A DNA stretch of 64,000 nt from Phycisphaerae bacterium (GTDB taxonomy: Bacteria; Planctomycetota; Phycisphaerae; UBA1845; Fen-1342). The position numbers and the translations under genes were made by a program. Under the pieces are notes generated by a model, which made no database searches, was not told the DNA's origin, and worked only from the letters and a program-made list of their open reading frames with translations. Shown one piece after another: positions 5,992 to 52,147 of the stretch (its first letter is position 1; the number at the start of each line of letters is the position of its first letter). The stretch covers positions 96,001 through 160,000 of the forward strand of contig JASFQK010000006.1 of assembly GCA_050115495.1 (NCBI GenBank), read 5' to 3'.

Positions 5992-6050
5992 GTCGTTCAC
6001 CTCCGATTTCGTCCTGCGCAATGAGACCTGATGCCGGCAAAAAATGAAGA

Positions 6051-33649: not shown

Positions 33650-36600
33650 ATGCGAGTGTTATCGGGCCATCTACGACGCCGTGCCGCCGTGTGCACCCTG
33701 CTGCTGCTGGCGATGGCCGCCCTCGCCGCCGCCGATCCGCCCGCGCCGTCCATCGACTTCACGCTGACGCTCGGCGAGGAACGGTTCGACCCGCTGGTCA
33801 CCGAGCCCGTCCTGCCGGCGAACCTGAGCGACGTCGCCCGCGACGGCGCCGACCTGCACCTCGTGCAGTTCATCGGACCGATCGAGGACGCCTGGATCGA
33901 CCGCCTTGCCGACCGCGGCCTCCAGATCATCGCCTACGTTCACCCCTACACGTACATCGTCTGGGGCGACGCGGCCGCCATCAGCGCCCAGCAGCGCGAC
34001 GCCGCCGTCCGCTGGACCGGCCCATTCGCGCCGGCGTATCGCCTCTTGCCCGCGGAGCGCGGCTACGCCGACGTGGCGACGCCCACGTGCATACTCGCCG
34101 TACGCGGCGCACCGGCCGAACGCGCCGCCACCCACCTCGCCGCCCTCGGCGCACGCTCCATCGCCCGGCAGCCGGTCGACGACCAGCTCGAGGTCATCGG
34201 CCTCAACATCTCCGGCGCCCGCCTCGACGCGGCGGCCAGCATCCCCGGCGTCTACAGTGTCCAGGCCATTCCCACCGACGGCGGCCTGCGCAGCGAACTG
34301 AGCGACCAGATCTGCGCCGGCAACATCGACGAGAACAACCTCGCTTTCCCCGGCTATCTCGACTGGCTGGGTGAGCTCGGCCTCTCTGGCGCCGGCGTCA
34401 TCATCGCCAACGTCGACAGCGGCATCGCCAACAACCACCCCGATCTCGCCGGCCGCCTGCTGCCCTGCACGGGCACGACTTGCGGCGGTACGGCACAAAG
34501 CGCCCACGGCACGCACACCGCCGGCATCATGGCCGCCGACGCGTCTTCCGGCGTGTACGATTCGTACGGCTTCCTGCGCGGCCTCGGTATGGCCCCCGGC
34601 GCGCAGCTCGTTGAGCAGCTCTACTCCCCGACATATCAATATGAAGACGGCCTGCGCTATCTCATGACCGAGTCATGGCGCAACGGCGCCTCGGTCTCCG
34701 GCAACAGTTGGGGCGCTTCCTCCTCGCCGCACGGCTACAACTTCCAGACACGGCAGGTGGACGTCGGCGTACGCGACGCTGATGCGACGCTACCCGGCAA
34801 CCAGCCCCTGTTCTACGTGCTGTCGATCGAAAACGGCTACGGCCACACCAGCACGCAGGGCGTTCCCGACGAAGCCAAGAACATCTTCACCATCGGCTCG
34901 ACGAGAGCGCGGTCTCAAACCGGCGTGCCGCTCACGAACATCGACGACCTCGGAAACACCAGCGCCCACGGCCCGGCCCTCGACGGCCGCCACATTCCAC
35001 ACATGGTCGCGCCCGGCTGCTACGTCGACTCGACGTACACCGGCGGCGGCCACATCGCGCTGTGCGGCACGAGCATGGCCTCGCCCCACGTCAGCGGCGC
35101 CGCGGCCCTGTTCATCGAGCAGTGGCGGCTGCGCCCCGACTACGTCGCCGATCCGAGCCCGGCCCTGATCAAGGCCGCCTTCCTCGTCTGCACGCACGAC
35201 CTCGCCGGCCACCTCGACGCCAACGGCAACACGCTCGGCCACCCCTTCGACAACAAGCAGGGTTGGGGCCGGTTCGATGCCGCCGCCGTCCTCGCCCCCA
35301 CCGTCGACGTCTGGTACGACGATGAGCCGGTCATCTTCGACGGCACCGGCGAGAAGTGGACACAGGTCGTCTACGCCGACGACCCCACGCAGCCCTTGCG
35401 CATCATGCTGGTCTGGACCGATGCTCCCGGACACGGCCTCGGCGGCAGCACGCCGGCCTGGAACAACGACCTCGACCTCATCGTCAGCGACGGCGAGAAC
35501 GTCTACCGCGGCAACCACTTCGACGCCGACGGCTGGAGCACCCCGGACGGCACGGCCGACTACATGAACAACACCGAGGGCGTCTTCATCGGCCCCACCG
35601 CCGACGGCCGCTACACCATCACCGTCTTCGCCAGCAACATCACGTCGGATGGCGTGCCCGCGTACGGCGACGGCACCGACCAGGACTTCGCCCTCGTCTG
35701 CTACAACTGCATGCCCGAACCGACCTTCACCATCGCGGTCGAGCCCGCCGTCCTCGACGTGTGCGCCCCGGCCGAGTTCGAGCTCAACGTGCACGTCGGT
35801 CAGGTGAGCGGCTTCAGCGAGCCGGTCCATCTCGGTGTGACCGACCTGCCGCCAGGCATCGCCGCCGACTTCCGCACCGGCTCCGTCCTGCCACCGACCG
35901 ACTGCGCACTGACCGTCACGGTCGATGCGGGCGCCGCGATCGGTGCGCAGCAGTTCCAGATCGTGGGCACGTCCGGCGACGTCACCCACACGGCCAACGT
36001 GAACCTCGTGGTGTACAACAGCCCGCCCGGCGTCGTGACCACGCTCGAGCCGCTGAACGGCGCCGCGGGCGTGGACCTTCGTCCCACGTTCCTCTGGGCA
36101 GAGACGCCGCAGGCGAACACCTATACGCTCGAGCTGGCCGCCGACGCCGGCTTCAACGACGTGCTGGCGTGGGTCACCGATCTGCACGGCACGTCGCACA
36201 CCTTCCCCGATCTCCTGGACAACGGGACGGAATACTTCTGGCGCACCTGGGCGACGAACGTCTGCGGTGACAGCCCGGCGGCTACGGTCTGCCGCTTCAC
36301 GACGCGCAACGTACCGACGATCCTCCTGGTCGACGACGACGACAACGGCCCCGACGTGCGGGCTCGCTTCACCGGCTCGCTCGACACGCTCGGCCTGGGC
36401 TACGACGTGTGGGACACCGCCAACTCCGACGACGAGCCCACCATCGACGACCTGCTCCCATACTCCGTGGTGATCTGGTTCACCGGCGACGAGTACGGCG
36501 GCGCGTGCGGGCCCGGCCCGGCGGGCGAACTCGCTCTGGTCGACCACCTCTCCCGCGGCAAGAACCTGCTGCTCAGCAGCCAGGATTACTACTACGACCG

Positions 36601-37234
36601 CGGGCTGACCAACCTCCTGGTCGATTACTTCGGCGTCATCAGCGTCACCGGCGAAGTCACGCACCTGTCCGTCACCGGCAGCGGCTCGGCCTTCGACGGG
36701 CTCGGCTCCTACGGCCTGATCTACCCGTACGCCAACTTCAGCGATGAGGTCATCCCCGGCCCGGGAGCGGAGACGGCGTTCGTGTCCTCGGTCGGCTCCG
36801 CCGCGGTCGACAAGGACGATCCCGTGTACCGCACGGTCTTCACTGGCTTCAGCTTCGATGCGCTGCCGGAAGACGCCCGGGCCGAGGTGCTGGCCGTCAT
36901 GCTCGAGTGGTTCCGCCCCTTCAGCGACTGCAACGGCAACGGCATCGGCGACCACGTGGACATCTACAGCGGCACCAGTGCCGACGAGGACGGCAACGGC
37001 GTTCCGGATGAGTGCCAGCCCGCCTACGCCGTCGGCGACGTCAATTGCAGTGGCGAAGTCAACAACTTCGACATCCGCCCCTTCGTCCTCGTGATCACCG
37101 GCACGCCGCCGGGCTACCCCGAGTATTACGACCGGTTCCCCGCCTGCGATCATCATCTGGCGGACATCAACGGCGACGGCACCGTCAACAACTTCGACAT
37201 TGGGCCCTTTGTGGACCTGCTCACCGGCGGTTAA
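33650..37234 (+). CDS. Secreted S8 (subtilisin, Kp43-like) serine protease with Ig/FN3-like, DCN-repeat and dockerin-like domains
   Basis: Catalytic triad VDSG / HGTHTAG / GTSMASPHV; NSWG; LVWTD..NDLDL jelly-roll domain; C-terminal GDVNCSGEVNNFDI..ADINGDGTVNNFDI. Confidence 0.92.
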   Translation: MRVLSGHLRRRAAVCTLLLLAMAALAAADPPAPSIDFTLTLGEERFDPLVTEPVLPANLSDVARDGADLHLVQFIGPIEDAWIDRLADRGLQIIAYVHPYTYIVWGDAAAISAQQRDAAVRWTGPFAPAYRLLPAERGYADVATPTCILAVRGAPAERAATHLAALGARSIARQPVDDQLEVIGLNISGARLDAAASIPGVYSVQAIPTDGGLRSELSDQICAGNIDENNLAFPGYLDWLGELGLSGAGVIIANVDSGIANNHPDLAGRLLPCTGTTCGGTAQSAHGTHTAGIMAADASSGVYDSYGFLRGLGMAPGAQLVEQLYSPTYQYEDGLRYLMTESWRNGASVSGNSWGASSSPHGYNFQTRQVDVGVRDADATLPGNQPLFYVLSIENGYGHTSTQGVPDEAKNIFTIGSTRARSQTGVPLTNIDDLGNTSAHGPALDGRHIPHMVAPGCYVDSTYTGGGHIALCGTSMASPHVSGAAALFIEQWRLRPDYVADPSPALIKAAFLVCTHDLAGHLDANGNTLGHPFDNKQGWGRFDAAAVLAPTVDVWYDDEPVIFDGTGEKWTQVVYADDPTQPLRIMLVWTDAPGHGLGGSTPAWNNDLDLIVSDGENVYRGNHFDADGWSTPDGTADYMNNTEGVFIGPTADGRYTITVFASNITSDGVPAYGDGTDQDFALVCYNCMPEPTFTIAVEPAVLDVCAPAEFELNVHVGQVSGFSEPVHLGVTDLPPGIAADFRTGSVLPPTDCALTVTVDAGAAIGAQQFQIVGTSGDVTHTANVNLVVYNSPPGVVTTLEPLNGAAGVDLRPTFLWAETPQANTYTLELAADAGFNDVLAWVTDLHGTSHTFPDLLDNGTEYFWRTWATNVCGDSPAATVCRFTTRNVPTILLVDDDDNGPDVRARFTGSLDTLGLGYDVWDTANSDDEPTIDDLLPYSVVIWFTGDEYGGACGPGPAGELALVDHLSRGKNLLLSSQDYYYDRGLTNLLVDYFGVISVTGEVTHLSVTGSGSAFDGLGSYGLIYPYANFSDEVIPGPGAETAFVSSVGSAAVDKDDPVYRTVFTGFSFDALPEDARAEVLAVMLEWFRPFSDCNGNGIGDHVDIYSGTSADEDGNGVPDECQPAYAVGDVNCSGEVNNFDIRPFVLVITGTPPGYPEYYDRFPACDHHLADINGDGTVNNFDIGPFVDLLTGG

Positions 37235-37274: not shown

Positions 37275-37303
37275 TTGACCTTGTCTGTGGCGAAGCGTAG
37301 ATT
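37275..37303 (+). promoter_or_regulatory. sigma70-type promoter of the amidohydrolase array
   Basis: TTGACC-N17-TAGATT in an AT-richer gap about 70 nt upstream of the first gene. Confidence 0.55.
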
Positions 37304-37371: not shown

Positions 37372-38805
37372 ATGCGACACACCCTCCCCTCTGTCGTCGC
37401 CGCCCCGTCCCGCGGCAAACCGAGATTCTGCGTCGCCCTCGCGCTGGCCGCCGCCCTGCTGGCCGTCCAGCCCGCCTTCGCCCAGTTGCGGCCCGTGGTC
37501 ATCCGCGAGGCCACCGTGCTGACCGGCGACGGACGGACCATCGAGAATGGCGGCGTGGCCTTCCAATCCGGCCAGATCACCGAGATTGGCCGCGATCTCG
37601 AAGCCTCATTCCTCGCCCAGAAGATCCCCGGCCGCGGCAAATACGTTACGCCCGGCCTCATCGACATCTACAGCACGCTCGGCCTGCGCGACCGGCTCGG
37701 CGGAGGATCGCCCACCGCCAAGGCCGTCGATGCCTTCGATTACTACGCCAGTGACGAGCTCCGCGCCGCCTGGCGCTGCGGCGTGACCGTCGTCTACCTA
37801 CCGGCCCGCACGAGTAACGGCGTCGGCGGGCTGGGCGCCGTCATGCGGCTGCTGCCGCCGAGGTCCTCCGGGGACGCGGTACTCGCCGAAGAGGCGGCCC
37901 TGAACATCGCCGTCGACGCCTCCGGCCGCCAGGGCCCGCTGTCCCGCGTGCGGACGGTCGAGGGCATGCGGCAGCTCCTGCGCTCCGCCAAGGAGTATCG
38001 CGAGACGTGCGAGAACTACGAGGAAGACCTCAAGGAATACGAGAAGAAAGTCGCCGAACGCGCCGCCAAAAAGGCCGAGGCCGAGAAGAAGGAGCAATCC
38101 GAGGGCGGCGCCGCGAAGAAAGGCGCGGACGAGGAAGAGAAAGAGGGCGAAGAGAAGAAGGACGCCGACGAGGAAGCCGAGAAGGACGAGCTGGAAAAGC
38201 CCACCGAGCCTGACCGCAATCCCGCCGCGCAGATTCTGCTGCGGGCCCTTGACGGTGAGATCCGCGTGCGCATCGAGGTTCACCATCCGGCGGACATTCT
38301 CAACATCCTCGACCTCGCCGAAGAGTACTCACTGGCCCTCGTCCTCGAAGGGGCCACCAGCGCCCATCTCGTCGCCGACCGCCTCGCCAAGGCGGACGTC
38401 CCCGTCGTGCTCTTCGCCGAACCCGCCCCTCTGGCCTACGACCCCGGCGCGGGACGCTACGAACGTCCGGACGCGGCGGCGGCACTGAGCCGCGCCGGCG
38501 TGAAAGTCTATCTCGGCACGGGCCCGCTGTCGGACACGACGGCCGAGCCGCGGCTGACGCTCGCCGCCGCCCGAGCGGTGGGCGACGGCCTGAGCACCGA
38601 CGCCGCCTTCGCCACCATCGCCTGGGGTGCCGCCCGGCTGCTGGGCATCGCGGACCGCGCCGGTCTGCTGGCCCCCGGCCGGGCCGCTGACATCGTCATC
38701 TGGAGCGATCACCCCCTGGCCCCCGGAGCCCGCGTCGAGCGCGTATTCCTCGACGGTCAGGAAGTCTACAACGCCGAAAAGGACGAGGAAGGACTCCGCC
38801 CGTGA
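37372..38805 (+). CDS. Secreted amidohydrolase-fold protein A (metal ligands lost; charged coiled-coil insert)
   Basis: TPGLIDIYSTLG (HxH absent), G.LAPGR.ADIVIWSDHPL; signal peptide. Confidence 0.85.
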   Translation: MRHTLPSVVAAPSRGKPRFCVALALAAALLAVQPAFAQLRPVVIREATVLTGDGRTIENGGVAFQSGQITEIGRDLEASFLAQKIPGRGKYVTPGLIDIYSTLGLRDRLGGGSPTAKAVDAFDYYASDELRAAWRCGVTVVYLPARTSNGVGGLGAVMRLLPPRSSGDAVLAEEAALNIAVDASGRQGPLSRVRTVEGMRQLLRSAKEYRETCENYEEDLKEYEKKVAERAAKKAEAEKKEQSEGGAAKKGADEEEKEGEEKKDADEEAEKDELEKPTEPDRNPAAQILLRALDGEIRVRIEVHHPADILNILDLAEEYSLALVLEGATSAHLVADRLAKADVPVVLFAEPAPLAYDPGAGRYERPDAAAALSRAGVKVYLGTGPLSDTTAEPRLTLAAARAVGDGLSTDAAFATIAWGAARLLGIADRAGLLAPGRAADIVIWSDHPLAPGARVERVFLDGQEVYNAEKDEEGLRP

Positions 38806-39983
38806 GATTCCCGGCAATGCGACGAGAACGTGTTCGGCGACAGGTGGCCGCGTGGGTCGCGTTGCTGAGCCTGCTGTTGTGGCCGGCATCCGTGCCCGGG
38901 CAGACACGCGTGCTGCGAGCCGCCGCCCGCGTCGCCCCCGACGGCAGCCTCGCCGACGACGGCCTGATCGTCATCCGTGACGGAACCATCGCCCAGGTCG
39001 GCGGCGAAGCGCCCGCGGACATCACCATCGATGACTATCCGCAGGCCGTCCTCTGCCCCGGTCTGATCGACTGCCGCAGTACGCTCGGCGTGCTGGGCGG
39101 CCTTGGCGAACACCAGACCGCCGTCCAGCCCAACGTCCGTGCCGCCGACGCTTTCGACAAGTACTCGCCGCAGTTGGCCACGGCTCTGCAAGCGGGCGTG
39201 ATGGTCTTCGCCATCGCCCCGGACGACGAGAACCTGGTCGGCGGCCGCATCGCCGTTTGCCAGACCGCCGGCCCGGACGGCCGCCCGCGTCTGCTGAGCG
39301 AGACCGGCCCGCTGAAGCTCTCGCTGTCGCCGGATGCGCTGAAGGGTGATCGCGAACCCACCTCGCGCAGCGGCGCCCTGGGCATGTTGCGCGACACGCT
39401 CACCGCGGCCCGCGAGCGTCCAGCCACGGCCGACCCGCTAGCCGCTTTCGCCGGCGGCACGCTCACCGGCGTGCTCTGTGCGCCAAGCGCCGCCGACGTC
39501 ATGGCCGGCGCCGACCTGGCTGAGCAGTTCGGCCTGCACCTCGTCGTCGAACACACGAATGACGCCCGGCTGGTGGCCGGCGACCTCGGCGACCACATCG
39601 CCGCGGTCATCGTCGGCCCGCTCGGGCTACACGCCGATCGACGGGCGGCACTGGCTGCCGGTCTGTTCGAAAAAGGTGGCACGCCCGTGGCCATCGCTGG
39701 CGGCCTGCCGGATACGTCACCGGACAGCCTGCGCATCGGCGCCGCCGTCGCTTGCCGCGCTGGCTTGAGTGCCGAAGCGGCTCGCCGGGCGATCACGATC
39801 GTACCGGCCACGGTGCTGGGCGTGTCCGAACGAATCGGCAGTCTCGAAGAGAAACGACAGGCGGACGTGGTGGTCTTCTCGGGTGACCCGCTCGACCTAC
39901 GCAGCCGCGTCCTGGCCGTCTACGTTCAGGGGATCAGGGTATTCGTCGCCGACCAACCGGCGGCGCAAGGAGATCAACCATGA
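38802..39983 (+). CDS. Secreted amidohydrolase-fold protein B (metal ligands mostly lost)
   Basis: PGLIDCRSTLG; AITIVPA.VLGV..RIGSLE..RQADVVVFSGDPL; GTGA overlap with A (alternative ATG 38817). Confidence 0.85.
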   Translation: MRFPAMRRERVRRQVAAWVALLSLLLWPASVPGQTRVLRAAARVAPDGSLADDGLIVIRDGTIAQVGGEAPADITIDDYPQAVLCPGLIDCRSTLGVLGGLGEHQTAVQPNVRAADAFDKYSPQLATALQAGVMVFAIAPDDENLVGGRIAVCQTAGPDGRPRLLSETGPLKLSLSPDALKGDREPTSRSGALGMLRDTLTAARERPATADPLAAFAGGTLTGVLCAPSAADVMAGADLAEQFGLHLVVEHTNDARLVAGDLGDHIAAVIVGPLGLHADRRAALAAGLFEKGGTPVAIAGGLPDTSPDSLRIGAAVACRAGLSAEAARRAITIVPATVLGVSERIGSLEEKRQADVVVFSGDPLDLRSRVLAVYVQGIRVFVADQPAAQGDQP

Positions 39984-41455
39984 GAATCAGTATCTCCAGC
40001 AAGGGGTGGCTCTCCGCCACATCGTCGCACCGTCGCATCATCTTCGCCGTGTGTCTGGCGTTCGGCCTACTGATCTGCGCTCCGGCCGCGAGCGCCGACG
40101 ACGCGAAGGTCGTCGTCATCAAGGCCGCCCGCCTCTACACGGGTGAAGGCGCGCCGATCACGAACGGCCTCGTCATCGTGCGCGATGGCCAGATCGTCGC
40201 CGCTGGCGCCGACCTCGCCATTCCCGAAGGCGCACAGGTCATCGATCTGCCCGAAGGCGTCATCACGCCCGGCTTGATCGACGCCTGCTGCACGGTCGAC
40301 TCCGAGGTCAAACAACAGGCCACGGACAGCCTCCACGGCGTCGAGCGCTATTCGTTCTGGCGGGCCATCGGCGAGATCGAGCCGCCCGATCCGAACGGCC
40401 CCTCGCTGCCCGGCGATTCCGAGTTTCCCGTCGGCCCCATCGCCGCCACGCGCGCCCTCGCCCCGGCGATCGACCCCGGCATAAGCTGGGCCGAACACGC
40501 TTCCGAAGTCACGCCCCACCGCCTCATGGCCGACTCGCTCAACCTGTACTCGAATGACTTCCGCCGGCTGCTCCGCGGCGGCGTGACCACCGTCTACGTC
40601 GCCCCCGACACGGCCGACGTTATCGGAGCCCGCGGCGTCGTCGTGAAAACCGCCGGCCTTCGCTCGCAGCGCATCGTGCAGCGCGAGGCGGCGGTGACGG
40701 CCTCGCTCGGCGGCGACCCCAGCTACCGCGGCGCCGGCAACAACCTCCCGCCGCGCTACGGCCCCGATCCGAACATTCACACGCGCCGACCCACGACGCG
40801 CATGGGCGTCGACTGGGTCTTCCGCAAAGCGTTCTATGACGCCAAGGCCACGCGCGACGGCCGAGCGCCCTCCGGCGCCGACGCACCGCCCGCCGAGGCG
40901 GTCCCCGTCCTCCTCGACCTGCTCGACGGCAAGGTGCCGCTGCGCATCCACGCCCGCCAGCAGAACGACATCTTCTCGGCGTTGCGGCTGGCCCGCGAGT
41001 TCGGCCTACGCTTCACCCTCGAAGAAGCCACCGAGGTGTACCGCTGCCTCCCGCAACTGCACGACGCCGGCGTGCCGGTGATCTTCGGCCCGCTCTACAT
41101 GAACGCCACCGGCTGGCGGCACTACAGCGGCGAAGCCCGGCATCCGCACCTGGACACGCCCGTGGAGTTCGTCGAGAGCGGCATCGAATTCGCCCTGACC
41201 GCGCAGGAGCTGCGTGACGAAGAGGGCCTCGCCCGCCAGGCGATGTTCGCCGTACGTCACGGCCTCAAGCCGGAGCAGGCCCTGCAAGCCGTCACCGCGA
41301 CGCCGGCGAAGCTGATCGGCTTCCCGCAGCGTCTGGGCGTGCTGACCCCCGGTGCCGACGCCGACCTGGTCGTGTGGAACGCCGAGCCCTTCACGGCCAC
41401 CTCGCGCCCGCTGCTGGTCATGATCAACGGCCAGGTGGTGCTCAAGGACAAGTGA
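39980..41455 (+). CDS. Secreted amidohydrolase-fold protein C (HxH lost)
   Basis: PGLIDACCTVD; PTTRMG; LRIHARQQNDI; PGADADLVVW; ATGA overlap with B. Confidence 0.85.
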   Translation: MRISISSKGWLSATSSHRRIIFAVCLAFGLLICAPAASADDAKVVVIKAARLYTGEGAPITNGLVIVRDGQIVAAGADLAIPEGAQVIDLPEGVITPGLIDACCTVDSEVKQQATDSLHGVERYSFWRAIGEIEPPDPNGPSLPGDSEFPVGPIAATRALAPAIDPGISWAEHASEVTPHRLMADSLNLYSNDFRRLLRGGVTTVYVAPDTADVIGARGVVVKTAGLRSQRIVQREAAVTASLGGDPSYRGAGNNLPPRYGPDPNIHTRRPTTRMGVDWVFRKAFYDAKATRDGRAPSGADAPPAEAVPVLLDLLDGKVPLRIHARQQNDIFSALRLAREFGLRFTLEEATEVYRCLPQLHDAGVPVIFGPLYMNATGWRHYSGEARHPHLDTPVEFVESGIEFALTAQELRDEEGLARQAMFAVRHGLKPEQALQAVTATPAKLIGFPQRLGVLTPGADADLVVWNAEPFTATSRPLLVMINGQVVLKDK

Positions 41456-41522
41456 TTCGGGCCAGGCACGGCCGCTGACGACCCGGACCATCCATCGCCG
41501 ACAGGAACACAAGGACCCGCTC

Positions 41523-42908
41523 ATGCCAGGAAAGTGTTTCCGCCTCGTGGCTTGCACACTGCTCGTTTGGGGATTGCCGCTCGCGGCGAGCATCGCGGCC
41601 GGTCCGCCGCCGGAGAGAGTCGCCCTCACCGGCGCCCGCATCATCACCATGGCCGGCGAGCCGCTGGAGCAGGGCACTGTGCTCATCGAGCACGGCCGCA
41701 TCGTCGCCGTCGGCCCGGACGTCGAGGTCCCCTACGACGCCCGCGTCTTCGACCTCAGCGGCAAGGTCGTCTTCCCCGGCATGATCAACGTGCACACCGC
41801 CGGCGGCCTCGACGTCACGAACGAGCCGCGCCCCGTCGTGCCACAGCTCAACGTCTACGACGCCATCGACCCCTCGCAGCTCTTCTTCGAAGACGCCCTG
41901 CGGCTGGGCATCACCGGCATCCACGTCATCCCCGGCAACAACACGGTCATCGGCGGCCTCGGCCGCGTCGTTCACCCGATCGGCATGACCGTCGCCGAAA
42001 TGACCATCACCGAGGGCGAGTTTCTGAAGCTGTCCATCTCTCCGCGCAGCGGCCTGGACCACATGAGCCAGATGGCCACGCTCCGCGAAACGTTCCTCGA
42101 TCTCGACGACTACCTCGCCAAGCTCGCCGAAAATCGCTACGAAGAGAAGCTCGCCGAAGACAAGAAGCAGATTGATGTCGGTCCCGCGGAGGCCCGCCGC
42201 CGCGGTCGCGACCTGATCCGCGCCGAGGACATCGACGATGAGCACCGCAACATGCTCCGCCTGATCGGCGGCAAGGTGCACGTCGCCGACGAGGATGGCC
42301 CACGCCTGTTCGAGCCGCTCGGCGCCTTCATCTACTGCGAAGAGGCCATGGACGTCGGCCCCGCCGTCCGCCTGGCCAAAGAGCACGACTTCCTCAGCCG
42401 CACCGTCCTCGTGCTCGACGGCGAATGCTACAAGGCCGTCGGCGAGCTCCGCCGCGCCGCCCGCCCCGTCGTCCTGCCGCCCGAGCTGATCTACCGCGAG
42501 ACCGACCCGCTCACCGGCGAGGTGCGCGAGACCTTCGTCCCCAAAGTCATCCACGACGCCGGTCTCGAATACGCCCTCATCCCCGGCCCCGACACCTCCT
42601 ACGCCGAACGGATGCTGACCTACCAGGCCGCCTGCTGCGTGCGTTACGGCATCCCGCGCGAGGCCGCCCTGAAGGCCATCACCGTCACGCCGGCGAAGAT
42701 GCTCGGCCTCGAAGGTCGCCTCGGCGCCATCGCCCCCGGCTTCGACGCCTACCTGGTCGTCTTCAGCGGCGACCCGCTCGATTTCAACAGCGTCGTCGAG
42801 AAGGTCTTCATCGACGGCATCCCCGCCTACGATCGCGACAAGGACGTGCGGCTCAAGCGGCTGCTGACCCCCGGCCCCGCCAAGACCACCGAGGAGAAGC
42901 CGGAGTGA
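41523..42908 (+). CDS. Secreted amidohydrolase-fold protein D (partial metal site)
   Basis: PGMINVHTAGG; PGNNTVIGG.G; AITVTPAKMLGL; signal peptide. Confidence 0.85.
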   Translation: MPGKCFRLVACTLLVWGLPLAASIAAGPPPERVALTGARIITMAGEPLEQGTVLIEHGRIVAVGPDVEVPYDARVFDLSGKVVFPGMINVHTAGGLDVTNEPRPVVPQLNVYDAIDPSQLFFEDALRLGITGIHVIPGNNTVIGGLGRVVHPIGMTVAEMTITEGEFLKLSISPRSGLDHMSQMATLRETFLDLDDYLAKLAENRYEEKLAEDKKQIDVGPAEARRRGRDLIRAEDIDDEHRNMLRLIGGKVHVADEDGPRLFEPLGAFIYCEEAMDVGPAVRLAKEHDFLSRTVLVLDGECYKAVGELRRAARPVVLPPELIYRETDPLTGEVRETFVPKVIHDAGLEYALIPGPDTSYAERMLTYQAACCVRYGIPREAALKAITVTPAKMLGLEGRLGAIAPGFDAYLVVFSGDPLDFNSVVEKVFIDGIPAYDRDKDVRLKRLLTPGPAKTTEEKPE

Positions 42909-45766
42909 GCGGCACAACCCGGTACATCGTCGCGGCCGCGGCCCTCGGTGCCGTGTTGCTGCTCACCGCCTTCGGCGTGCTCGGTCTGACGCAACCCGAG
43001 CCGGCGGCGACGCCCGCCGCACCGGCCCCGGCCGAATCCGCGGCCGCCGGCCCGTCGTTCGTCATCCGCGCCAAGGCTGTCTATCCGGTCACAGCCGCCG
43101 CCCCCGGTCCGCTGACGCCCGGCACGATCATCGTGCGTGACGGCCGCATCGAAGCCGTCGGCACCGACCTCGACATCCCCGCCGATCTGCCCGTCATCGA
43201 CCTGCCCGACGAAGTCATCTGTCCCGGCTTCGTCTCGGCGGGCAGCGCCCTGGCCGGCCGGCACCGCGGCGACGAGAGCGTCAGCGGCGCCTACCACGCC
43301 CTCGACGCCTTCGACAACTACTACGATTACCGTCCCACACTGGCCCGCGGCACAACCACCGCGCACCTCGACCCCGGCGAGCACCGCCTCGTCAGCGGCG
43401 TCGGTGCCGTGGTCAAGCTCGCCGGCGATCCCGAACAGCGCGTCCTCGTGCCCGAGGCCGATCTAACCATCACGCTCGGCACGTTCGATCCGCCGCCACT
43501 GTTCAAGCCGCCCTTCTACGCCTCGTCCGACGTCGCCATCGAGCCGGCCCAGCGGCAGCGCCCCGATTCCCGCCTCGGCCAGTTCCTCGAGCTCGAAGAG
43601 CGCATCGCGGCGGCCAACGCGGCTGCGGCCGATCCCGCCGCTGCCGTCGAGGCCCCGTTCAACGTGCACACGCAGGCGTTCAGCGAGGCGTGGACAGCGA
43701 AGCTGCCGCTGCGCTTCCAGGTGCGGCGGGCCGCCGACATCGCCGGCGCCCTGCGCTTCATCGCCGAACAGGGCCGGCCGGCATACCTCGTCGGCTTGAC
43801 CGAGGCCGACCGCCTGCCCGAAGCGTTGTGGGCGGCGCGCGTCCCCGTCGTAGTCCGCGTAGAAGAGACCTACGAGCAACCGGGCCGGGACATCGGCCGT
43901 CATCCCAACGCCCTCGCCCCGGCTCTCGACACCGCTGGCCAGTTGGCTCCCGGACCGCTGGCCATCGCTCTCGCCGGCCGCAGTGGCGACCGTGACGAGG
44001 ACCTGCGCATGGTGGCCCGGCTGGCCGTGCGCGGCGGCATGTCCGCCGAGCAGGCCCTGGCCGCGATCACCCGCACGCCTGCGGAAATCCTCGGCGTCGA
44101 TGAGCGCGTCGGTAGCCTCGCCCCCGGGCGCGACGCCGACCTGCTCGTCCTGACGGGCGCCCCGCTGGATATTTCGAGCCACGTCCGCCGCGTCTACGTC
44201 GGCGGGCGCATGGTCTTCGAAGCTCCGCAGCGTGAGGCGCTGGTCATCAAGGCCGGCACCGTGTGGGTGGGCGACGGCACGGTCTTGCAGGACGGCGCCG
44301 TGCTGATCGAGGACGGCAAGATCCAGGCGGTTGGCCACCGCGTGCCGCATCCACCTTCGGCGCGCGTGATCGACGCCGGCCCGGACGGCTTCCTCACGCC
44401 CGGCTTCATCGACAGCCTCGGGCACCTCGGCCTCGAAGGAGACCGCTCGGGCGCTGGGCCGGACATGAAGTTGCCGCGAGTGCTCGCGACGGCCGGTTCG
44501 GACTTCCTGCGCGTGGCCCGCGCGGGCGTGACCACGGTGCTGCTGACCCCCTACGCCTTCCCGGACAACGGCGCCCGGCTGACCGCCATCAAGACCTACG
44601 GCTTCAGCCGCGAAGACCTTGTGGCCCGCGAGGTGACGGGCCTGCGCTTCTCGCTGCGTGGCCGCGACCCGCTCACCGGTCTCGGATCGCTGCGCGGCGC
44701 GCTCGACGCTGCGAAGAAGTACGACGAGCAGTGGAAGAAGTACCAGGAAGAACTGGCCAAGTGGGAGAAGGCCCGCGCCGAGGGCAAGACGGCCAAGCCC
44801 AAGGAGAAGGAAGAGACGGTCGTCGAAGGCGGCAAGGAAGACCCGATCACCGGTACGTGGGAGGTGACGCTCAGCGGCGATCCGCTGCCCGAGACGGTCA
44901 CCACCACCATGACCCTCAAGCTCACCGGCGACACGATCGAGGGCCGCGTTCTCGAACCGGGCGGCAGCGAGGAAGTTGAGCTCACCGGCACGCTCAACGG
45001 CAAGGAAGTAACGCTTGAGATCACGGTGCCTGACTCGCCCGTCGGCAACCCGGTCGTCAGAGCAGCGCTCGACCGCGAAGACCACATGACCGGCACGCTG
45101 ACCATCGCCAACTACGCGATTCAGTTCGAGGCCACCCGCACCGACAAGAGCGACGTCGAGTTCAAGGTCACCCGTCGCCGCCAGCGGTCGAAGGACGGCC
45201 GCCCGCTTCCACCGCGGGTCAACGAATCGCTCGAACCCTACCGCCCGCTGCTGGCCGGCCAAATCCCCGCCGTGGTCGACGTGTCCTCGGCCGGCGAGAT
45301 CGCTGCCGCCATCAAGCTGTTCATCGAAGAGAACAAGCTGCCGCTGGTTCTGCTGGGTGCGGACGACGCCGCCGACGTCATGGACCGCCTGGTGGCCTGC
45401 AAGGACAAGCTGGGTGTGATCGTGTCGCCGGTGCTGGTCACCGAGCGCGAGCGCCGGCCCTACTGGCCGGTCATCGACCTCAGCCGGCACGGCATCCCCG
45501 TCGCCCTGCGGAGTGGCGGCGAGGACCGGGCCCGCAACCTGCCACTAATGGGCTTGTACGCGGTCGCCGAAGGGCTGGGCGGGGATGTCGCCCTACGGGC
45601 CCTGACGATCGACGCCGCGAAGATGTACCACCTGGACGATCGGCTGGGCTCGCTCCAGCCGGGACGCGATGCCGACGTGCTCATCTTCCAGGGCCACCCG
45701 TTCGATACGGGCAGCCGGTTGGAGCGCGTGGTGATTTCCGGACGCGAGGTGCCGCATGAGAAGTAG
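42905..45766 (+). CDS. Tandem two-domain amidohydrolase-fold protein E with inserted beta-barrel domain
   Basis: GTG 42905 overlaps the stop of D; N-terminal hydrophobic helix; domain 1 PGFVSAGSAL, domain 2 PGFIDSLGHLG; two GSL.PGRDAD motifs. Confidence 0.85.
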   Translation: MSGTTRYIVAAAALGAVLLLTAFGVLGLTQPEPAATPAAPAPAESAAAGPSFVIRAKAVYPVTAAAPGPLTPGTIIVRDGRIEAVGTDLDIPADLPVIDLPDEVICPGFVSAGSALAGRHRGDESVSGAYHALDAFDNYYDYRPTLARGTTTAHLDPGEHRLVSGVGAVVKLAGDPEQRVLVPEADLTITLGTFDPPPLFKPPFYASSDVAIEPAQRQRPDSRLGQFLELEERIAAANAAAADPAAAVEAPFNVHTQAFSEAWTAKLPLRFQVRRAADIAGALRFIAEQGRPAYLVGLTEADRLPEALWAARVPVVVRVEETYEQPGRDIGRHPNALAPALDTAGQLAPGPLAIALAGRSGDRDEDLRMVARLAVRGGMSAEQALAAITRTPAEILGVDERVGSLAPGRDADLLVLTGAPLDISSHVRRVYVGGRMVFEAPQREALVIKAGTVWVGDGTVLQDGAVLIEDGKIQAVGHRVPHPPSARVIDAGPDGFLTPGFIDSLGHLGLEGDRSGAGPDMKLPRVLATAGSDFLRVARAGVTTVLLTPYAFPDNGARLTAIKTYGFSREDLVAREVTGLRFSLRGRDPLTGLGSLRGALDAAKKYDEQWKKYQEELAKWEKARAEGKTAKPKEKEETVVEGGKEDPITGTWEVTLSGDPLPETVTTTMTLKLTGDTIEGRVLEPGGSEEVELTGTLNGKEVTLEITVPDSPVGNPVVRAALDREDHMTGTLTIANYAIQFEATRTDKSDVEFKVTRRRQRSKDGRPLPPRVNESLEPYRPLLAGQIPAVVDVSSAGEIAAAIKLFIEENKLPLVLLGADDAADVMDRLVACKDKLGVIVSPVLVTERERRPYWPVIDLSRHGIPVALRSGGEDRARNLPLMGLYAVAEGLGGDVALRALTIDAAKMYHLDDRLGSLQPGRDADVLIFQGHPFDTGSRLERVVISGREVPHEK

Positions 45767-47018
45767 ACTCAGGCTGGCCGCTGTGCTCCTGCTGGCGATG
45801 ACCGTCGCCGGCGGGTGGGCCGACGATCTGCGCGGGCAAGCCGGCGAGTCGGCCGGCATGGCTCTGCGCGTGGCCAAGATCGTCGCCATGGACGACGCCG
45901 ACACCGTGATCAACGACGCCGTCGTGCTGGTGCGCGACGGGCAGATCGAGGCTCTCGGCCCGGCCGGCAAGATCGAGGTGCCGGAGTCCTACCGCGTCCT
46001 CGAATTCCCCGAGCACTGGCTGGTGCCCGGCATCGTCGACGCCCACAACCACAGCGCCGCCGGCGCCTGGGACGACCTCAACGACATGGTCTACCAGACC
46101 AACCCCGGCCTCGACACCCGCAGCATTCCCCAGGCCGACAACGACTGGATCCGCCTGGCTCGCATGGGCGGCGTCACCACCGTCATGCTCCTCCCCGGCA
46201 GCGGCACCAACCTCGCCGGCATGGGCACCGTGGTCAACACCGGCGGCCGCGACCCCGACGAGATCGTCATCCGCTCGCCCGGCTCGCTCAAGATCGCCCA
46301 GGCTGGCAACCCCGAGTGGTACTTCGGCGGCAACGGCCGCATGTTCATGTACTGGAACCTGCGCCAAACCCTCGAAAAAGCTGAGAAGTACCACCAGAGC
46401 TGGCTCGACTACGAAGAGGGCCGCACCACCGAGCCGCCCCCGTTCGACCCCACCTGGGAGATCATCCGCGACACGTTCCGCCACAAGAACCCGGCCACCA
46501 TGCATACGCAGGGCTACCAGCTCATGATGTCCACGCTGGACATGATTACCGGCCGCTTCGGCATGTGGACCGTTCTGGACCACTGCACGTTCAACGGCTG
46601 GAAGCTCGGCCCGCTCGTGTGCGAGACCGACGCCTGGGCCATCAACGGCCCGCGTCAGTACGAGTTCGACCGCACCGCCCGCCGTATGATCGGCAACGCC
46701 TCCGGCTGGTGGAAGAACGGCGTCCGCCGCCTCGGCATCAACACCGACGCCCCCGTCATTCCCCAGCAGGAACTGACCTACCAGGCGGCCATGGCCTGCT
46801 GGTACGGCTGGCTGCCCTATCCCGCCCTCCAGGCGGTTACCCGCGTCAACGCCCAGTCCATTGGCGTCTACGACCAGGTCGGCAGCGTCGAGGTGGGCAA
46901 GCAGGCCGACCTCTCCATCTGGACCGGCGACCCGCTCGATCCCCGTTCGGCCTGCCTGCTGACCATCCTCAAGGGCCGGATCATCTACGACGGCACCGAA
47001 GGTCTGCGACGGTTTTAG
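45756..47018 (+). CDS. Secreted metal-dependent amidohydrolase F (complete binuclear metal site)
   Basis: PGIVDAHNH (HxH), SLKIA (carbamylated Lys position), MHTQ, LDHC, INTDAP (Asp). Confidence 0.9.
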   Translation: MRSRLRLAAVLLLAMTVAGGWADDLRGQAGESAGMALRVAKIVAMDDADTVINDAVVLVRDGQIEALGPAGKIEVPESYRVLEFPEHWLVPGIVDAHNHSAAGAWDDLNDMVYQTNPGLDTRSIPQADNDWIRLARMGGVTTVMLLPGSGTNLAGMGTVVNTGGRDPDEIVIRSPGSLKIAQAGNPEWYFGGNGRMFMYWNLRQTLEKAEKYHQSWLDYEEGRTTEPPPFDPTWEIIRDTFRHKNPATMHTQGYQLMMSTLDMITGRFGMWTVLDHCTFNGWKLGPLVCETDAWAINGPRQYEFDRTARRMIGNASGWWKNGVRRLGINTDAPVIPQQELTYQAAMACWYGWLPYPALQAVTRVNAQSIGVYDQVGSVEVGKQADLSIWTGDPLDPRSACLLTILKGRIIYDGTEGLRRF

Positions 47019-47029
47019 GAACCCTGTTG

Positions 47030-48388
47030 ATGAGTGCTGCCCGCATGCAGAATTCAACCGCTTCCCCCGAGGCGTACCGCCGACCGCAACACGGCCCCGG
47101 CCTGCTGGTCCTGCTGCTCGCCGCCGCGTTCGCCGCGGCGACCTGCCTGGCCGACCCGCCCGCCGGCGACGATGAAGGTCGCTTCGTCGTCATCAAGGCC
47201 GGCCGCATCATCACCGTCAGCGGTGAGGAGATTCGGCAGGGAATGATCGTTCTCTCCGGCGGTCGCATCCGCAACGTCGGCCGCAACCTCGAATACCCCC
47301 TCAGCGCCAAGGTCATCGACGCCCGCAACCGCGTGGTCATGCCGGGTCTCATCAACCCCCAGTCACGCTTCGGCCTCGACTCGCACTACCGCGGCGGCGT
47401 GCACGGCGATCTGACCGCCGCCGCCGAGTTCTACCCGCGGCCGGACATGTTCCTCGACCTGCTCAAGACCGGCTACACGTCCGTGGCGCTGATCCCCGCC
47501 GGCTCGGGCATCCCCGGGCGGGCGATGGTCGTGCACACCGGCGGCTCCGACGAGCAGCGCACGGTGGCCTCGCCGTCGTACCTGTGGATCACCACCGGTA
47601 AGTCCGGCCTCCGCAGCGCGCTCAAGCACGCCCAGGATGAGATCGACAAGGTCGAGAAGGCCCGCGAGGAATTCGAGAAGAAGCGCGCCGAGGAGCAACA
47701 GAAGCAGGAACCGCCCAAAGACCAGGACAAGCCTGCCGCCGCCGACACGCCGCCGCCGACCACACAACCCACCACGCAGCCGGCCGAGCCGCCCAAGTTC
47801 GAGCCCCCGCCGATCGACCCGGCCTACCAGGTCCTCGTCGACCTCATCCAGAAGAAGCCCGGCGTCTCCGCCCTGATCGAGGTGGACAGCGCTTCCGACT
47901 ACGTGTACCTGAGCGAAGTCCTGGCCGAGTTCGAAATCGCCCACGACTTCCTGGCCCACAACGGCCGGATGTCCGACCTCGACTATGTCGTCGACAAGCT
48001 GGGCGAGAAGAAGGCTCGGCTCGTCCTCGAGCCGTTCATCGGCCGCGTGCCGTATTCGGCGGAGTGGGTGCACCTGGTACGCCAGTTCGCCGACGCCGGC
48101 TGCGAGGTGACGGTGATGCCCGTGAGGGACACACCGGAAGAGCACGGCCGCGTGCTGGGCCGCCTGGCCGACCTGGTACGGAACGGCTGGTCGCGGGAAG
48201 AGGCGATCAAGTCGGTCACGCTGCACCCGGCGCGTCTGCTCGGCCTCGACGATCGCCTCGGCACCATCGAAAAGGACAAGGAAGCCGACCTGCTCTTCCT
48301 CGACGCCGATCCGCTGAATCCGACGGCCCGCGTGCGGGCCGTGATGATTGCCGGCGAGATGGTCTACGATTCGGAGGAGACCGACTGA
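47030..48388 (+). CDS. Secreted amidohydrolase-fold protein G (metal ligands lost; coiled-coil/TTQP insert)
   Basis: MPGLINPQSRFG; VTLHPARLLGLDDRLGTIE..KEADL. Confidence 0.85.
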   Translation: MSAARMQNSTASPEAYRRPQHGPGLLVLLLAAAFAAATCLADPPAGDDEGRFVVIKAGRIITVSGEEIRQGMIVLSGGRIRNVGRNLEYPLSAKVIDARNRVVMPGLINPQSRFGLDSHYRGGVHGDLTAAAEFYPRPDMFLDLLKTGYTSVALIPAGSGIPGRAMVVHTGGSDEQRTVASPSYLWITTGKSGLRSALKHAQDEIDKVEKAREEFEKKRAEEQQKQEPPKDQDKPAAADTPPPTTQPTTQPAEPPKFEPPPIDPAYQVLVDLIQKKPGVSALIEVDSASDYVYLSEVLAEFEIAHDFLAHNGRMSDLDYVVDKLGEKKARLVLEPFIGRVPYSAEWVHLVRQFADAGCEVTVMPVRDTPEEHGRVLGRLADLVRNGWSREEAIKSVTLHPARLLGLDDRLGTIEKDKEADLLFLDADPLNPTARVRAVMIAGEMVYDSEETD

Positions 48389-49743
48389 TGCCCGCCGTTC
48401 GCGCCACCCTCGCCTTCGTCGTGATCTGCATCCTGCTGGCGCCTGCCGCCTGGGCCCAGGCCGAGTCGCAACCGGCCAGTCAGCCGGCGACCGCCCCCGC
48501 CTCGGCGCCCACAACGCAGAGCCAGCCGACCACCACGACGACCGCCGCCGCCGAGAACGAGAAGGACCGCTACCTCGCCGTCATCAACGGCCGGGTGCAC
48601 ACCGTCACCGGTCCCGTCCTCGAACAGGCCACCGTCCTCTGCAAGAACGGCACGATCCTCGCCATCGGCAACGACGTGCACCTCCCCACCGAGTGCACGA
48701 TCGTCGACGCCAAGGGCATGTTCGTGTACCCGGGCCTCGTCGCCGCCTGCGGCGGGATACTCAACGGCACTCCCGAAAGCAGCGTCAACATCTACTCCCT
48801 CGGCCTGACCATCGCCCTGGCCGGCGGCATCACCACGAGCCTCGTCGGCGACACTGCCGCCAAGCTCACCTTCGGCACCACCGAGGACATGGTCATCAAG
48901 GACGGTCTGTTCGTGAACCTGTCCTACTCCCGGCGGAACCCGTTGCAGCGGGCCGAGCTGCGGGCCGACCTCGAACGCGTGCGTGCCTACCTGCGCGACC
49001 AAGCCCGCTACGAGCGCGACAAGGAGCGCAACAAGGACGCCAAGCCGCCCGACAAGGAATGGCTCACGGGCGAGTACGAGAGCTACAAGCAACTGCTCGA
49101 GGGGCACGCCGTAGCCTCCGCTTGGGCCGAGACCACACAGGATCTGCGTGACCTGGCCGACCTGGCCTCCTCCTTCGGCTTCGCCCTCGTCGTCCGCGGC
49201 GCCTACGAAGGCTGGACCGTCGCCGGCGATCTCGGCCGGGCCGGCGTCCGCGCCATCATCACCCCCCGCACCGACATCGATCCCGACGAGGACCTCAACC
49301 GCCCCACCGGCTCGACCATCGAAAACGCCCGCATCCTCCACGACCACGGCGTGCCCGTGGCCGTCGTACCCGGGACGCAAGGCATCACCACCTGGGGCCT
49401 CGCCGGCCGCGACCTGCTCCACCTGAATATGGAAGCCGCCTTCGCCGTCCGCGGCGGGCTGACCAATGACGAGGCTCTGCGCACCATCACGATCGACGCC
49501 GCCCGCATCCTCGGCATCGACGACCGCGTCGGCTCGCTCGAAGTCGGCAAAGACGCCGACCTCGTCGTCTGCGACGGCGATCTGCTCCACTACATGACGC
49601 AGGTGCACTACACGATCGTCAACGGCCGCGTCGCCTACACGAAGTCGGCCGAGTCGCTCTTCGCCCACATCCGCCCCGAAGGCAAACGGGAAATGACCAG
49701 GTTCGACGACCAGTGGCCGCGCCGGCTCGAATGGCCGGAATGA
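48388..49743 (+). CDS. Secreted amidohydrolase-fold protein H (metal ligands lost)
   Basis: TGATG coupling, GGAGGA RBS, signal peptide; YPGLVAACGG; TIDAARILGIDDRVGSLEVGKDADLVV. Confidence 0.85.
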   Translation: MPAVRATLAFVVICILLAPAAWAQAESQPASQPATAPASAPTTQSQPTTTTTAAAENEKDRYLAVINGRVHTVTGPVLEQATVLCKNGTILAIGNDVHLPTECTIVDAKGMFVYPGLVAACGGILNGTPESSVNIYSLGLTIALAGGITTSLVGDTAAKLTFGTTEDMVIKDGLFVNLSYSRRNPLQRAELRADLERVRAYLRDQARYERDKERNKDAKPPDKEWLTGEYESYKQLLEGHAVASAWAETTQDLRDLADLASSFGFALVVRGAYEGWTVAGDLGRAGVRAIITPRTDIDPDEDLNRPTGSTIENARILHDHGVPVAVVPGTQGITTWGLAGRDLLHLNMEAAFAVRGGLTNDEALRTITIDAARILGIDDRVGSLEVGKDADLVVCDGDLLHYMTQVHYTIVNGRVAYTKSAESLFAHIRPEGKREMTRFDDQWPRRLEWPE

Positions 49744-50627: not shown

Positions 50628-50663
50628 TAGTTCAGCAATGCATTGGGATGTGGAGGGTTTGCG

Positions 50664-51041
50664 GTGGCATTTGCTCGTGACCTGTTGCGGGGCAGCCTGG
50701 AGCTGATGGTGCTCTCAGAGCTAAGCTCTTGCGAGAAATACGGTTACCAGATTCTGTCCTCGTTGCGGCAGCGCAGCGACGGCCGGGTCGACCTCAAAGC
50801 CGGCACGCTGTACCCGATTCTGCACAAACTCGAACGCTCGGGTGCCGTAGAAAGCCGGTGGGATGGCAGCACGGCACGAGAGCGGAAATGGTACGCCCTG
50901 ACGGACAAGGGTCGCAGCCGTCTGACCCAGGACGCTCACGAGTGGGCGGATTACGCCGCCTGCGTCCGGGCGATTCTGCGGCCGATCCTGGGCGATGACG
51001 GAGCGGGGGCACAACCGGCGCTGGGTGGCGGAGGCGTGTGA
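50664..51041 (+). CDS. PadR family transcriptional regulator
   Basis: GGAGGG RBS then GTG; LLRGSLELMVL, YGYQI, GTLYP.L.KLE, RKWY.LT.KG. Confidence 0.93.
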   Translation: MAFARDLLRGSLELMVLSELSSCEKYGYQILSSLRQRSDGRVDLKAGTLYPILHKLERSGAVESRWDGSTARERKWYALTDKGRSRLTQDAHEWADYAACVRAILRPILGDDGAGAQPALGGGGV

Positions 51042-52147
51042 TGTCCGAGGTGGACTTCGAGGCCTACCTGGGTCTGCTCTCCCGGTTCCTGCGGCTGAGT
51101 GCGCGCCAGCGGGATGAGATTCGCCGGGAGCTGCGGGCTCACCTCGAAGAAGCCATTGAGGACGAGATGGCCGCGGGAACGCCGCGCGACGAGGCAGTTC
51201 TCCGCGTGCTGGATGATTTCGGGGATGCGGCCGAGTTGGCCGCCCGGTTCAGTTCTGTCGGCCGAAAGCGAAGGTGGATCATGAGAGGAACGATGGCGGC
51301 GGCAGTCATCGGGCTCGTGGCGTTCATGGTTGTGGGCTTCTCGCCGAAGGGCACGGCGCCGGCGGTGGCCGACGACGCGCAGACACCCGCCGTGGCAACA
51401 ACGGTCCAGGAGCACGATCCCGACGCGCCGATCCTGGCGGCGCTCGCCCGGAACGTGCCCGAGGTGATGCTGGAGCAGGTGCCGCTTGACGTGGCGGTGG
51501 AGTGGTTCCAGGAGCTCATGGGTGTCAACATCGTCGTGTATTGGGCGGATCTGGAAAACGTGGGCGTGCCGCGCGATGCGCCGGTCTCGGTGAACCTGCG
51601 GAACGTGACGGTCGAACGTACCCTGCGTCTGGTGCTCGACATGGCCAGCGAGATGAGCGACCTCGGCTACGACATCGACGATGGCATCCTGGTGATCGCG
51701 TCGCGGCACCGGCTGCCGGATCGACAGGTGACCGAGGTGTACGAAGTACGCGACCTGCTGGCGGCGACGGCGCGTTACGCCCGGTTGGAGGACGACGCCC
51801 AGGGGACCCAGTTATTGGCGGACACGATCGCCGGACACCTGCGGCGGGGCATCCCGACCCGTGAGGACATGCCCGCCGAGCTCGTCATGCAGGCGGAAGT
51901 TCATTCGGCCGTGACCAGGGCGCTCGAGACGTATCGCCGCGAAGTAAGCCCCGCGGCGGCGGAGACGCTGCTGGTGGACCTCATCGAACAGACCATCGAC
52001 CCGGACGCGTGGCTCTGCAACGGTGGCATGGGCACGGCGAGAATCCTCAATGGCGTGCTGGTCGTGCGCCAGACGCCGAAGATTCACGAGGAAGTCGAGC
52101 AACTGCTGGACGATCTCCGCGAGGCCGGGGCAGCCGAAACGCAGTAG
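51038..52147 (+). CDS. HAAS/permease-prefix-like domain + TM + STN/secretin-N-like periplasmic domains
   Basis: DEIRRELRAHLEE...FGDAAELA; one TM helix; PVSVNLRNVT...L, VYEVRDLL, LVVRQT..IHEEV..LL..LR; GTGA overlap with padR. Confidence 0.75.
   Translation: MMSEVDFEAYLGLLSRFLRLSARQRDEIRRELRAHLEEAIEDEMAAGTPRDEAVLRVLDDFGDAAELAARFSSVGRKRRWIMRGTMAAAVIGLVAFMVVGFSPKGTAPAVADDAQTPAVATTVQEHDPDAPILAALARNVPEVMLEQVPLDVAVEWFQELMGVNIVVYWADLENVGVPRDAPVSVNLRNVTVERTLRLVLDMASEMSDLGYDIDDGILVIASRHRLPDRQVTEVYEVRDLLAATARYARLEDDAQGTQLLADTIAGHLRRGIPTREDMPAELVMQAEVHSAVTRALETYRREVSPAAAETLLVDLIEQTIDPDAWLCNGGMGTARILNGVLVVRQTPKIHEEVEQLLDDLREAGAAETQ

Follow-up and report, generated by a model that had tools for sequence, protein, structure and literature searches.

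Eight consecutive genes encode nine amidohydrolase-fold domains

The stretch of DNA analysed here, referred to as the window, comprises 64 kb of a Phycisphaerae bacterium genome (Planctomycetota; assembly GCA_050115495.1, contig JASFQK010000006.1, positions 96,001 to 160,000). It contains an array of eight same-strand genes, designated A to H, which encode nine amidohydrolase domains. An earlier reading of this DNA (the original prediction) had proposed that only one of these domains is an intact enzyme, and that the array encodes a hetero-oligomeric complex. The coordinates of its open reading frames (ORFs) were confirmed; the features, with the evidence used to assign them, are as follows:

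37275..37303, + strand: sigma70-like promoter candidate 5' of A, weak (9/12 matches)
37372..38805, + strand: A, amidohydrolase-fold subunit without catalytic site (ORF, Pfam, ligand mapping)
38802..39983, + strand: B, dead in the window genome with 2/6 ligands (ligand mapping)
39980..41455, + strand: C, dead subunit (ligand mapping)
41523..42908, + strand: D, dead subunit (ligand mapping)
42905..45766, + strand: E, two-domain ORF
42905..44230, + strand: E1, domain one of E, dead, with an N-terminal signal or anchor
44231..45766, + strand: E2, domain two of E, dead with 1/6 ligands
45756..47018, + strand: F, intact binuclear-type amidohydrolase of the F-alpha type (ligands, AlphaFold model, tree)
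47030..48388, + strand: G, dead subunit (ligand mapping)
48388..49743, + strand: H, dead subunit (ligand mapping)

All eight ORFs exceeded the cut-offs of Amidohydro_1 (PF01979) and Amidohydro_3 (PF07969), with two domains in E. Membership in the amidohydrolase superfamily, whose fold combines a TIM barrel with a beta-sandwich, is likewise apparent from the structural models of F and E and from profile-profile comparison, in which each group matched F with a probability of 100. The paralogues are as divergent as had been proposed, sharing 19–32% identity over long pairwise alignments. Five of the seven junctions overlap and read exactly as claimed (A/B GTGA, B/C ATGA, D/E GTGA, E/F 11 nt, G/H TGATG), and the other two are separated by gaps of 67 nt (C/D) and 11 nt (F/G). 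The GC content of the array equals that of the remaining window, and a search of the window genome with F as query matched only the nine array domains. The single sigma70-like promoter proposed for the array is present but weak, as two such sites were found in the region compared to 0.8 ± 0.8 in shuffled sequence.

No array protein came near the cut-off of any named NCBIfam family. The top match for F was Xaa-Pro dipeptidase (NF051886), an identity that was rejected since F scored 69.1 bits and the best of the eight proteins 82.3 bits against a cut-off of 500; imidazolonepropionase HutI (TIGR01224) was rejected likewise (best 73.1 bits, cut-off 298). The array also draws attention to a block of genes that carry the database names imidazolonepropionase-like or adenine deaminase, even though D does not have the catalytic site.

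F carries a complete metal site and is closest to 3OOQ

Amidohydrolases of the binuclear type hydrolyse amide bonds using two metals held via a carboxylated lysine. In the window genome, only F possesses all six ligands, as the original prediction had stated (H97, H99, K179, H250, H276 and D331, with the beta1 motif DAHNH). These residues, the beta1 HxH, beta4 Lys, beta5 His, beta6 His and beta8 Asp, are kept in 205/205 F copies and align with the ligand motifs of 3OOQ, an amidohydrolase of Thermotoga maritima that was the best sequence and structure match of F, D and E (E-value 2.8e-31). The AlphaFold model of F (predicted local distance difference test, pLDDT, 92.9) superimposed on 3OOQ with a template-modelling (TM) score of 0.87, a Z score of 47.3 and a root-mean-square deviation of 2.4 over 367 aligned residues. 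The next structure reached a Z score of 25.6, and the other listed entries had TM scores of at most 0.59. The F proteins of the array therefore belong to a 3OOQ-like group, presumably the subfamily cd01309 of CDD, and 3OOQ is clearly the nearest structure. A literature search did not find a substrate for 3OOQ.

The nearest characterised structures to F were peptidases and deaminases at equally low rank. Xaa-Pro dipeptidases and Arg/Lys carboxypeptidases (3MTW, 2QS8, 3BE7) have a binuclear, Lys-bridged site like that of F; however, with Z scores of about 25 compared to 47 for 3OOQ, they serve solely as a pointer to the substrate class. By analogy, F would bind two metals through a carboxylated lysine and cleave an amide. 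That the substrate is a peptide or an N-acyl amino acid is a guess, with about an even chance of being right.

Octamers had been put forward as the template for the array; this did not hold, because the nearest structure has ten chains, which suggests two copies of F per particle. The 3OOQ entry contains ten identical chains, and a docking benchmark of 10–30-chain complexes classes it as dihedral (10.64898/2026.08.06.736029). Chain count and figure legend together point to a decamer of D5 symmetry.

The other eight domains have lost most metal ligands

Ligand positions in the other groups were located by aligning profiles; for A, C, D, E1, G and H only 3–5 of the six positions were mappable. 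Within these limits, each dead domain of the window genome keeps 0–2 canonical ligands: K172 and H251 in B, H91 and K169 in D, H324 in C, H65 in E2, and none at the mapped positions of A, E1 and H. Their beta1 motifs read DIYST, DCRST, DACCT, NVHTA, SAGSA, DSLGH, NPQSR and AACGG, as previously listed. The claim that a beta8 Asp is missing outside F stood in general, with the small qualification that G has a conserved Asp, D367 (125/160 copies), about two residues beyond the beta8 position; R113 of G is conserved as well. Among relatives, the best ligand counts were 1/4 for A, 2/3 for C, 3/5 for D, 2/4 for E1, 4/6 for E2, 3/5 for G and 1/4 for H, and A never exceeded one of its four mapped ligands across 140 copies. 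Most dead groups are freely variable at the ligand positions. Alternative metal ligands, named beforehand as a possible objection, did not add up to an alternative canonical site in the dead groups as far as can be read from sequence.

The exception is B, which has 6/6 ligands in 2/147 copies (L079 and L182), both from family f97. By eye, the B domain of P0082 also reads as intact (6/6). E2 keeps 4/6 ligands in 10/164 copies. Judging from these residues, stages of catalytic loss seem to survive among relatives. B appears to have been active once and is probably a former catalytic subunit; since E2 is the sister of B in the tree, it was probably active as well. The notion of a single catalytic subunit thus applies to the window genome; beyond it, B is intact in the two f97 copies, and 23/170 loci have two to four copies of F.

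Several dead groups have conserved features of their own. C has an Arg-rich motif (R269, R270, R274, R282); D, the most conserved dead subunit, retains a half site (H91, K169, N100, E101); and H keeps W276, R294, R341 and D342 together with a conserved C-terminal tail. Long K/E-rich insertions occur in A, E2 and G, that of G being charged, helical and Pro-rich. In the AlphaFold2 model of E (pLDDT 94.6, predicted TM score 0.83), both barrels are complete, and E1 and E2 are packed as one unit. E2 additionally contains a long helix with an eight-stranded beta domain inserted at its end (about 44852–45145), which is missing in 14/164 copies; family and feature searches did not assign this insert to any named family (best feature score 0.84). 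The nine groups were each monophyletic in an 80-row tree (6/6 sampled rows per group), and the branching between them was mostly not resolved.

Gene order and dead-domain copy number are invariant

We compared 170 loci, the window included, after removal of 20 duplicate loci and four non-arrays (L202–L205). Thirteen domain calls missed by the prefilter were added by hand and excluded from the order check; three labels (B in L077, A in L084, E2 in L181) were assigned by position, so that the order check is circular for those three. All nine domains were present in 127/170 loci from at least 25 families, and not one of the 127 violated the order. Conserved order and one-to-one orthology, set in advance as a test of the original prediction, were thus borne out. 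Most of the 43 incomplete loci stop at a contig or fetch edge, and a split or truncated member occurred in five loci (L047, L094, L152, L179, L200). Two genomes have relocated parts: in G495, A to E lie on one contig and F, G and H on another, and in G270 a probable H lies away from the array.

Duplicates of dead domains were absent from all 170 loci. F was duplicated in 23/170, with two to four intact copies; of the 127 complete arrays, 109 have a single F, 11 have two, 3 have three and 4 have four. A second array exists in one genome (L201, G323:C63). A solo F outside the array was seen in two genomes of family f32 (L202, L203), and these copies may be exchange subunits.

Neighbouring subunits are found fused. 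The E1=E2 fusion is shared by all 126 other complete arrays, and A=B is fused in 9 of these 126. B=C fusions occur in five, as A=B=C, a form also found in P0008, P0019, P0034, P0067 and P0084; G=H is fused in L071, P0043 and P0141. A D=E fusion in L047 and its duplicate L133 represents one genome and was not counted. Flanking genes recurred in 19 loci at most, and none of them was identified as a companion of the array throughout.

Dead domains are under purifying selection

The ratio of nonsynonymous to synonymous substitution rates (dN/dS), likewise fixed in advance as a test, was determined from 15 non-overlapping pairs of close genomes, of which 8–15 were usable per domain. Median values were 0.16 for A and B, 0.14 for C, 0.08 for D, 0.13 for E1, 0.10 for E2, G and H, and 0.06 for F, and the maximum for any domain was 0.27. 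The dead domains, with medians of 0.08–0.16 far below 1, are under purifying selection. Together with their conservation across the phylum, this agrees with the view of maintained pseudoenzymes instead of decaying genes.

Signal-peptide-like N-termini, proposed for all eight proteins, were recovered in all eight groups by a hydrophobicity heuristic, the one criterion by which they were judged. N-terminal to the domain, 122/128 copies of A, 150/154 of E, 194/195 of F, 154/156 of G and 149/153 of H have a stretch that is hydrophobic and uncharged. An apparent loss of signal peptides in B, C and D (79/127, 76/126 and 75/132) was largely an artefact of domain boundaries; after boundary correction, the stretch was seen in 32/34, 36/42 and 45/45 of the printed N-termini, respectively.

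The array is ancient and kept or lost as a block

F orthologues were found in 12/40 near relatives and in 0/6 genomes of the same genus, where D was absent too in the 4/6 searched with D. F-type matches occurred in 11/201 genomes of the class and 104/401 sampled genomes of the phylum, and D matched 98/401 phylum genomes, once per genome at that threshold. The two lists have 95 of 107 genomes in common. In six of the nine F-only genomes, the fetched locus also contains D; the remaining three F matches and the matches of all three D-only genomes lie near contig ends. As the lists largely coincide, the remaining exceptions lie near contig ends and same-genus genomes lack F and, where searched, D, the array is kept all-or-none and lost as a block. 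It is ancient and occurs in roughly one in four of the Planctomycetota genomes sampled, and many of the bacteria that keep it are uncultured.

A scan of species genomes yielded at least 635 related stretches. By source label only, the best 80 of these comprised 74 from Planctomycetota, 4 from uncultured bacteria, 1 from Vicinamibacteraceae and 1 from Bacillota; single D homologues carried the source labels Gemmatimonadota and Armatimonadetes.

F occurs in two types

In 19 of the 23 multi-F loci (families f30, f32, f70 and f100), at least one copy of an HTQ-type F (alpha) is followed by one non-HTQ copy (beta). The alpha clade was supported at 99/98 and excluded the last, beta copy. Because of this exclusion and the occurrence of the pattern in all four families, the alpha/beta split predates f30, f32, f70 and f100, and it brings the number of domain types there to ten. 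Lineages with a single F mostly have alpha, and beta in f54, f66 and f97. Expansion to three or four copies was restricted to f32 and involved alpha duplicates save for one beta copy. The simplest reading would be two F positions, with one gene filling both in the window genome.

Smaller active–dead sets exist in the same family

The amidohydrolase family of the array also includes smaller sets. Triples are dead-active-dead fusions of 1,250–1,600 amino acids, found in 44 proteins (L035, L037, L039 and 41 among P0005–P0148), with HxH in 38/44 middle domains and in 0/44 of each flanking domain. They also occur split as two-domain pieces. Two-gene pairs of an active and a dead protein, of at least two types, were found in L034, L036, L038, L040, L204 and L205. 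Pair, triple and array apparently occur together in several genomes; the window genome has the large array only, with neither pair nor triple in the F-query search. Pairs and triples resemble the array in fold, in predicted secretion and in placing one intact domain beside dead ones, but they have two or three domain types compared to nine or ten, and their clades are separate from A–H. A rule by which domain counts would divide ten (pair + triple = 5 × 2) was dropped, as units of three are themselves frequent, in the form of the triples.

A secreted hetero-oligomeric particle and its alternatives

We propose that each of the eight products would be exported singly by its own signal peptide, and that all would come together beyond the inner membrane as a single hetero-oligomeric particle, descended from a homo-oligomer of the 3OOQ type. 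F would carry out catalysis, hydrolysing amide bonds at its two-metal site with a carboxylated Lys bridge. Each of the eight dead domains would occupy one position, with surfaces and appendages that may scaffold F or select or channel substrate; the half site of D and the arms of A, E2 and G might serve in substrate capture or docking. We consider it probable that the subunits form such a particle, because the gene order is invariant, the groups are monophyletic, dead domains stay single, the array is lost as a block, neighbours fuse and dN/dS is low, and because split operons keep their parts (G495, G270). With a fixed, position-specific and mostly non-catalytic set under purifying selection, the array would qualify as a paralogue-diversified hetero-oligomer.

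The particle may be a pseudo-D5 decamer of A, B, C, D, E1E2, F, F, G and H, with about 4,250 residues (estimated by hand) and two active sites. Two copies of F are suggested because 3OOQ is dihedral with ten chains and the array comprises nine types of domain, of which only F duplicates. A decamer with two F subunits nevertheless has, in our view, slightly less than an even chance of being correct. Similarly tentative, and marginally on the doubtful side, is the full picture of a periplasmic ten-position particle made of nine or ten paralogues, eight of them pseudoenzymes, with the genes in assembly order.

Several points weigh against this proposal. The particle is deduced from genes; export of the subunits is predicted by the hydrophobicity heuristic; and operon order and fusion of neighbours are also seen for enzymes of a single pathway. 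As for the count of ten, the D5 symmetry of 3OOQ is itself deduced from chain number and a figure legend, and three-domain relatives are represented by the 44 dead-active-dead proteins, three not being a divisor of ten. F copies range from one to four, with an extra solo F in two genomes, so that the F positions are not fixed at two. The alpha/beta groups were initially defined on the very sequences in question, by their tree and motifs, the beta copies formed a clade in 10% of bootstrap trees and were not resolved as one, and four multi-F loci do not follow the alpha-plus-beta pattern. An analysis of inter-subunit coevolution in the 127 arrays (effective number about 101) did not separate subunit pairs, as a few hub columns dominated the top inter-domain scores; its outcome has no bearing on the proposal either way.

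A single hetero-complex of another size, for example a 12-mer of eight dead domains and four F, a 9-mer or a double ring, would be a sub-case of the same proposal. The maximum of four F copies, reached in 4/127 complete arrays, and the abundance of 2:1 triple fusions fit such a count. However, three or four F copies are confined to f32 and, apart from one beta, are alpha duplicates, and no division of the dead domains into two groups of four is seen; we regard other counts as rather unlikely. The corresponding idea that two such groups match the flanking domains of the triple was rejected, as the tree does not display them.

Alternatively, the dead domains might be independent periplasmic ligand-binding proteins or non-canonical enzymes that belong to one pathway and form no complex. 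The conserved polar residues of D (H91, K169, N100, E101), G (R113, D367), C (Arg cluster) and H (W276, R341, D342) could be understood in this way, as could the fully intact B of one family. Yet most groups vary freely at the ligand positions, unlike a working pocket, no partner gene accompanies the array, and a pathway is unlikely to retain exactly these nine domains over at least 25 families. We therefore view independent proteins as improbable.

Still less probable are small alternative complexes, in which F would join one dead partner at a time and the partner would change specificity, so that no large particle forms. The active–dead pairs described above provide a precedent in the same family, but this arrangement explains neither the dead-dead fusions (E1=E2, A=B=C, G=H) nor a fixed set of eight partners that has seen no gains and is lost all-or-none, and F is encoded once in 109/127 arrays against eight partners. 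A mainly structural assembly, such as a cage, filament or envelope element that is matured or remodelled, or whose envelope is, by F activity, would suit the finding that 8/9 domains are non-catalytic, several with long charged arms, and the retention of the set in genomes down to 2.4–2.9 Mb. It is very unlikely, as the pocket motifs of F keep diversifying and variants are gained, as for a substrate-processing enzyme, and close relatives lose the whole array. Decaying tandem duplicates without function, to which the split or truncated members of L047, L094, L152, L179 and L200 might point, are already refuted by a dN/dS of at most 0.27 in every domain and by conservation across the phylum.

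Relation to known systems and implications

In the 20S proteasome, the RNA exosome core, CCT and Sm rings, a homomeric ancestor gave rise to position-specific, mostly non-catalytic paralogues, and in the immunoproteasome catalytic subunits are exchangeable. COMMD proteins reportedly form a hetero-decamer. The array is likewise diversified into paralogues, but it has another fold, is bacterial, secreted according to its N-termini and encoded in one operon; moreover, those complexes have been observed, and that of the array is a proposed one. 3OOQ shares with F the six ligand motifs and the fold, but consists of identical chains from one gene, in contrast to the nine or ten distinct domains of the array, eight of which lack the site, with signal-peptide-like N-termini. 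Pseudoenzymes of the TIM-barrel amidohydrolase fold that have lost metal ligands and act as structural subunits are known from CRMP/dihydropyrimidinase-related proteins and Pseudomonas PyrC'. These form tetramers or support an unrelated enzyme as a scaffold, whereas the array would place eight different dead paralogues around a live one. A literature search found no description of the array, most subscription papers being outside its reach, and the array is apparently undescribed.

To our knowledge, rings in which nearly every position is taken by a different, mostly inactive paralogue are usually deemed a eukaryotic trait. If correct, our proposal would describe a bacterial counterpart of proteasome- or exosome-type complexity, in which stages of its history are still visible as a lineage with intact B, lineages with F-alpha and F-beta, and interchangeable F variants that retune specificity. 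The operon fits on one 12.4-kb fragment and could be expressed whole. Natural variants are available that differ in the number of catalytic genes (one to four), in whether B is intact or dead and in whether subunits are fused or split, as are two- or three-domain relatives, so that adaptive roles of the dead subunits (scaffolding, gating, specificity) and neutrally entrenched complexity become directly testable against each other. As a marker system, the array could also be of use for Planctomycetota lineages about which little is known.

Neighbouring genes

Directly 5' of the array lie genes for a secreted S8 peptidase (33533–37234, +) and a small secreted protein (32578–33465, +), which have a common repeat-like C-terminal tail with a 'VNNFDI' motif and whose position beside the array is not conserved in other genomes. 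The S8 peptidase and the downstream hisN were considered as parts of the array and rejected, since flanking clusters comprise at most 19 loci and the largest ones are lineage-bound.

Further away, a VgrG-like spike gene (Phage_GPD and Gp5 domains) is followed by a gene whose product has a peptidoglycan-binding domain (2715–6159, −); no further secretion-system genes were found beside it among the window ORFs scanned. A 772-residue protein (26424–28742, +) matched MtsC and Omp28-selenoprotein weakly, below cut-off, and selA (56144–57613, +) is located in the same window. A PadR regulator precedes a protein with a HAAS/permease-prefix domain (50643–52147, +). For prfB (53628–54749, +), the usual programmed-frameshift site CTT TGA C is located near 53706, upstream of the listed ORF.

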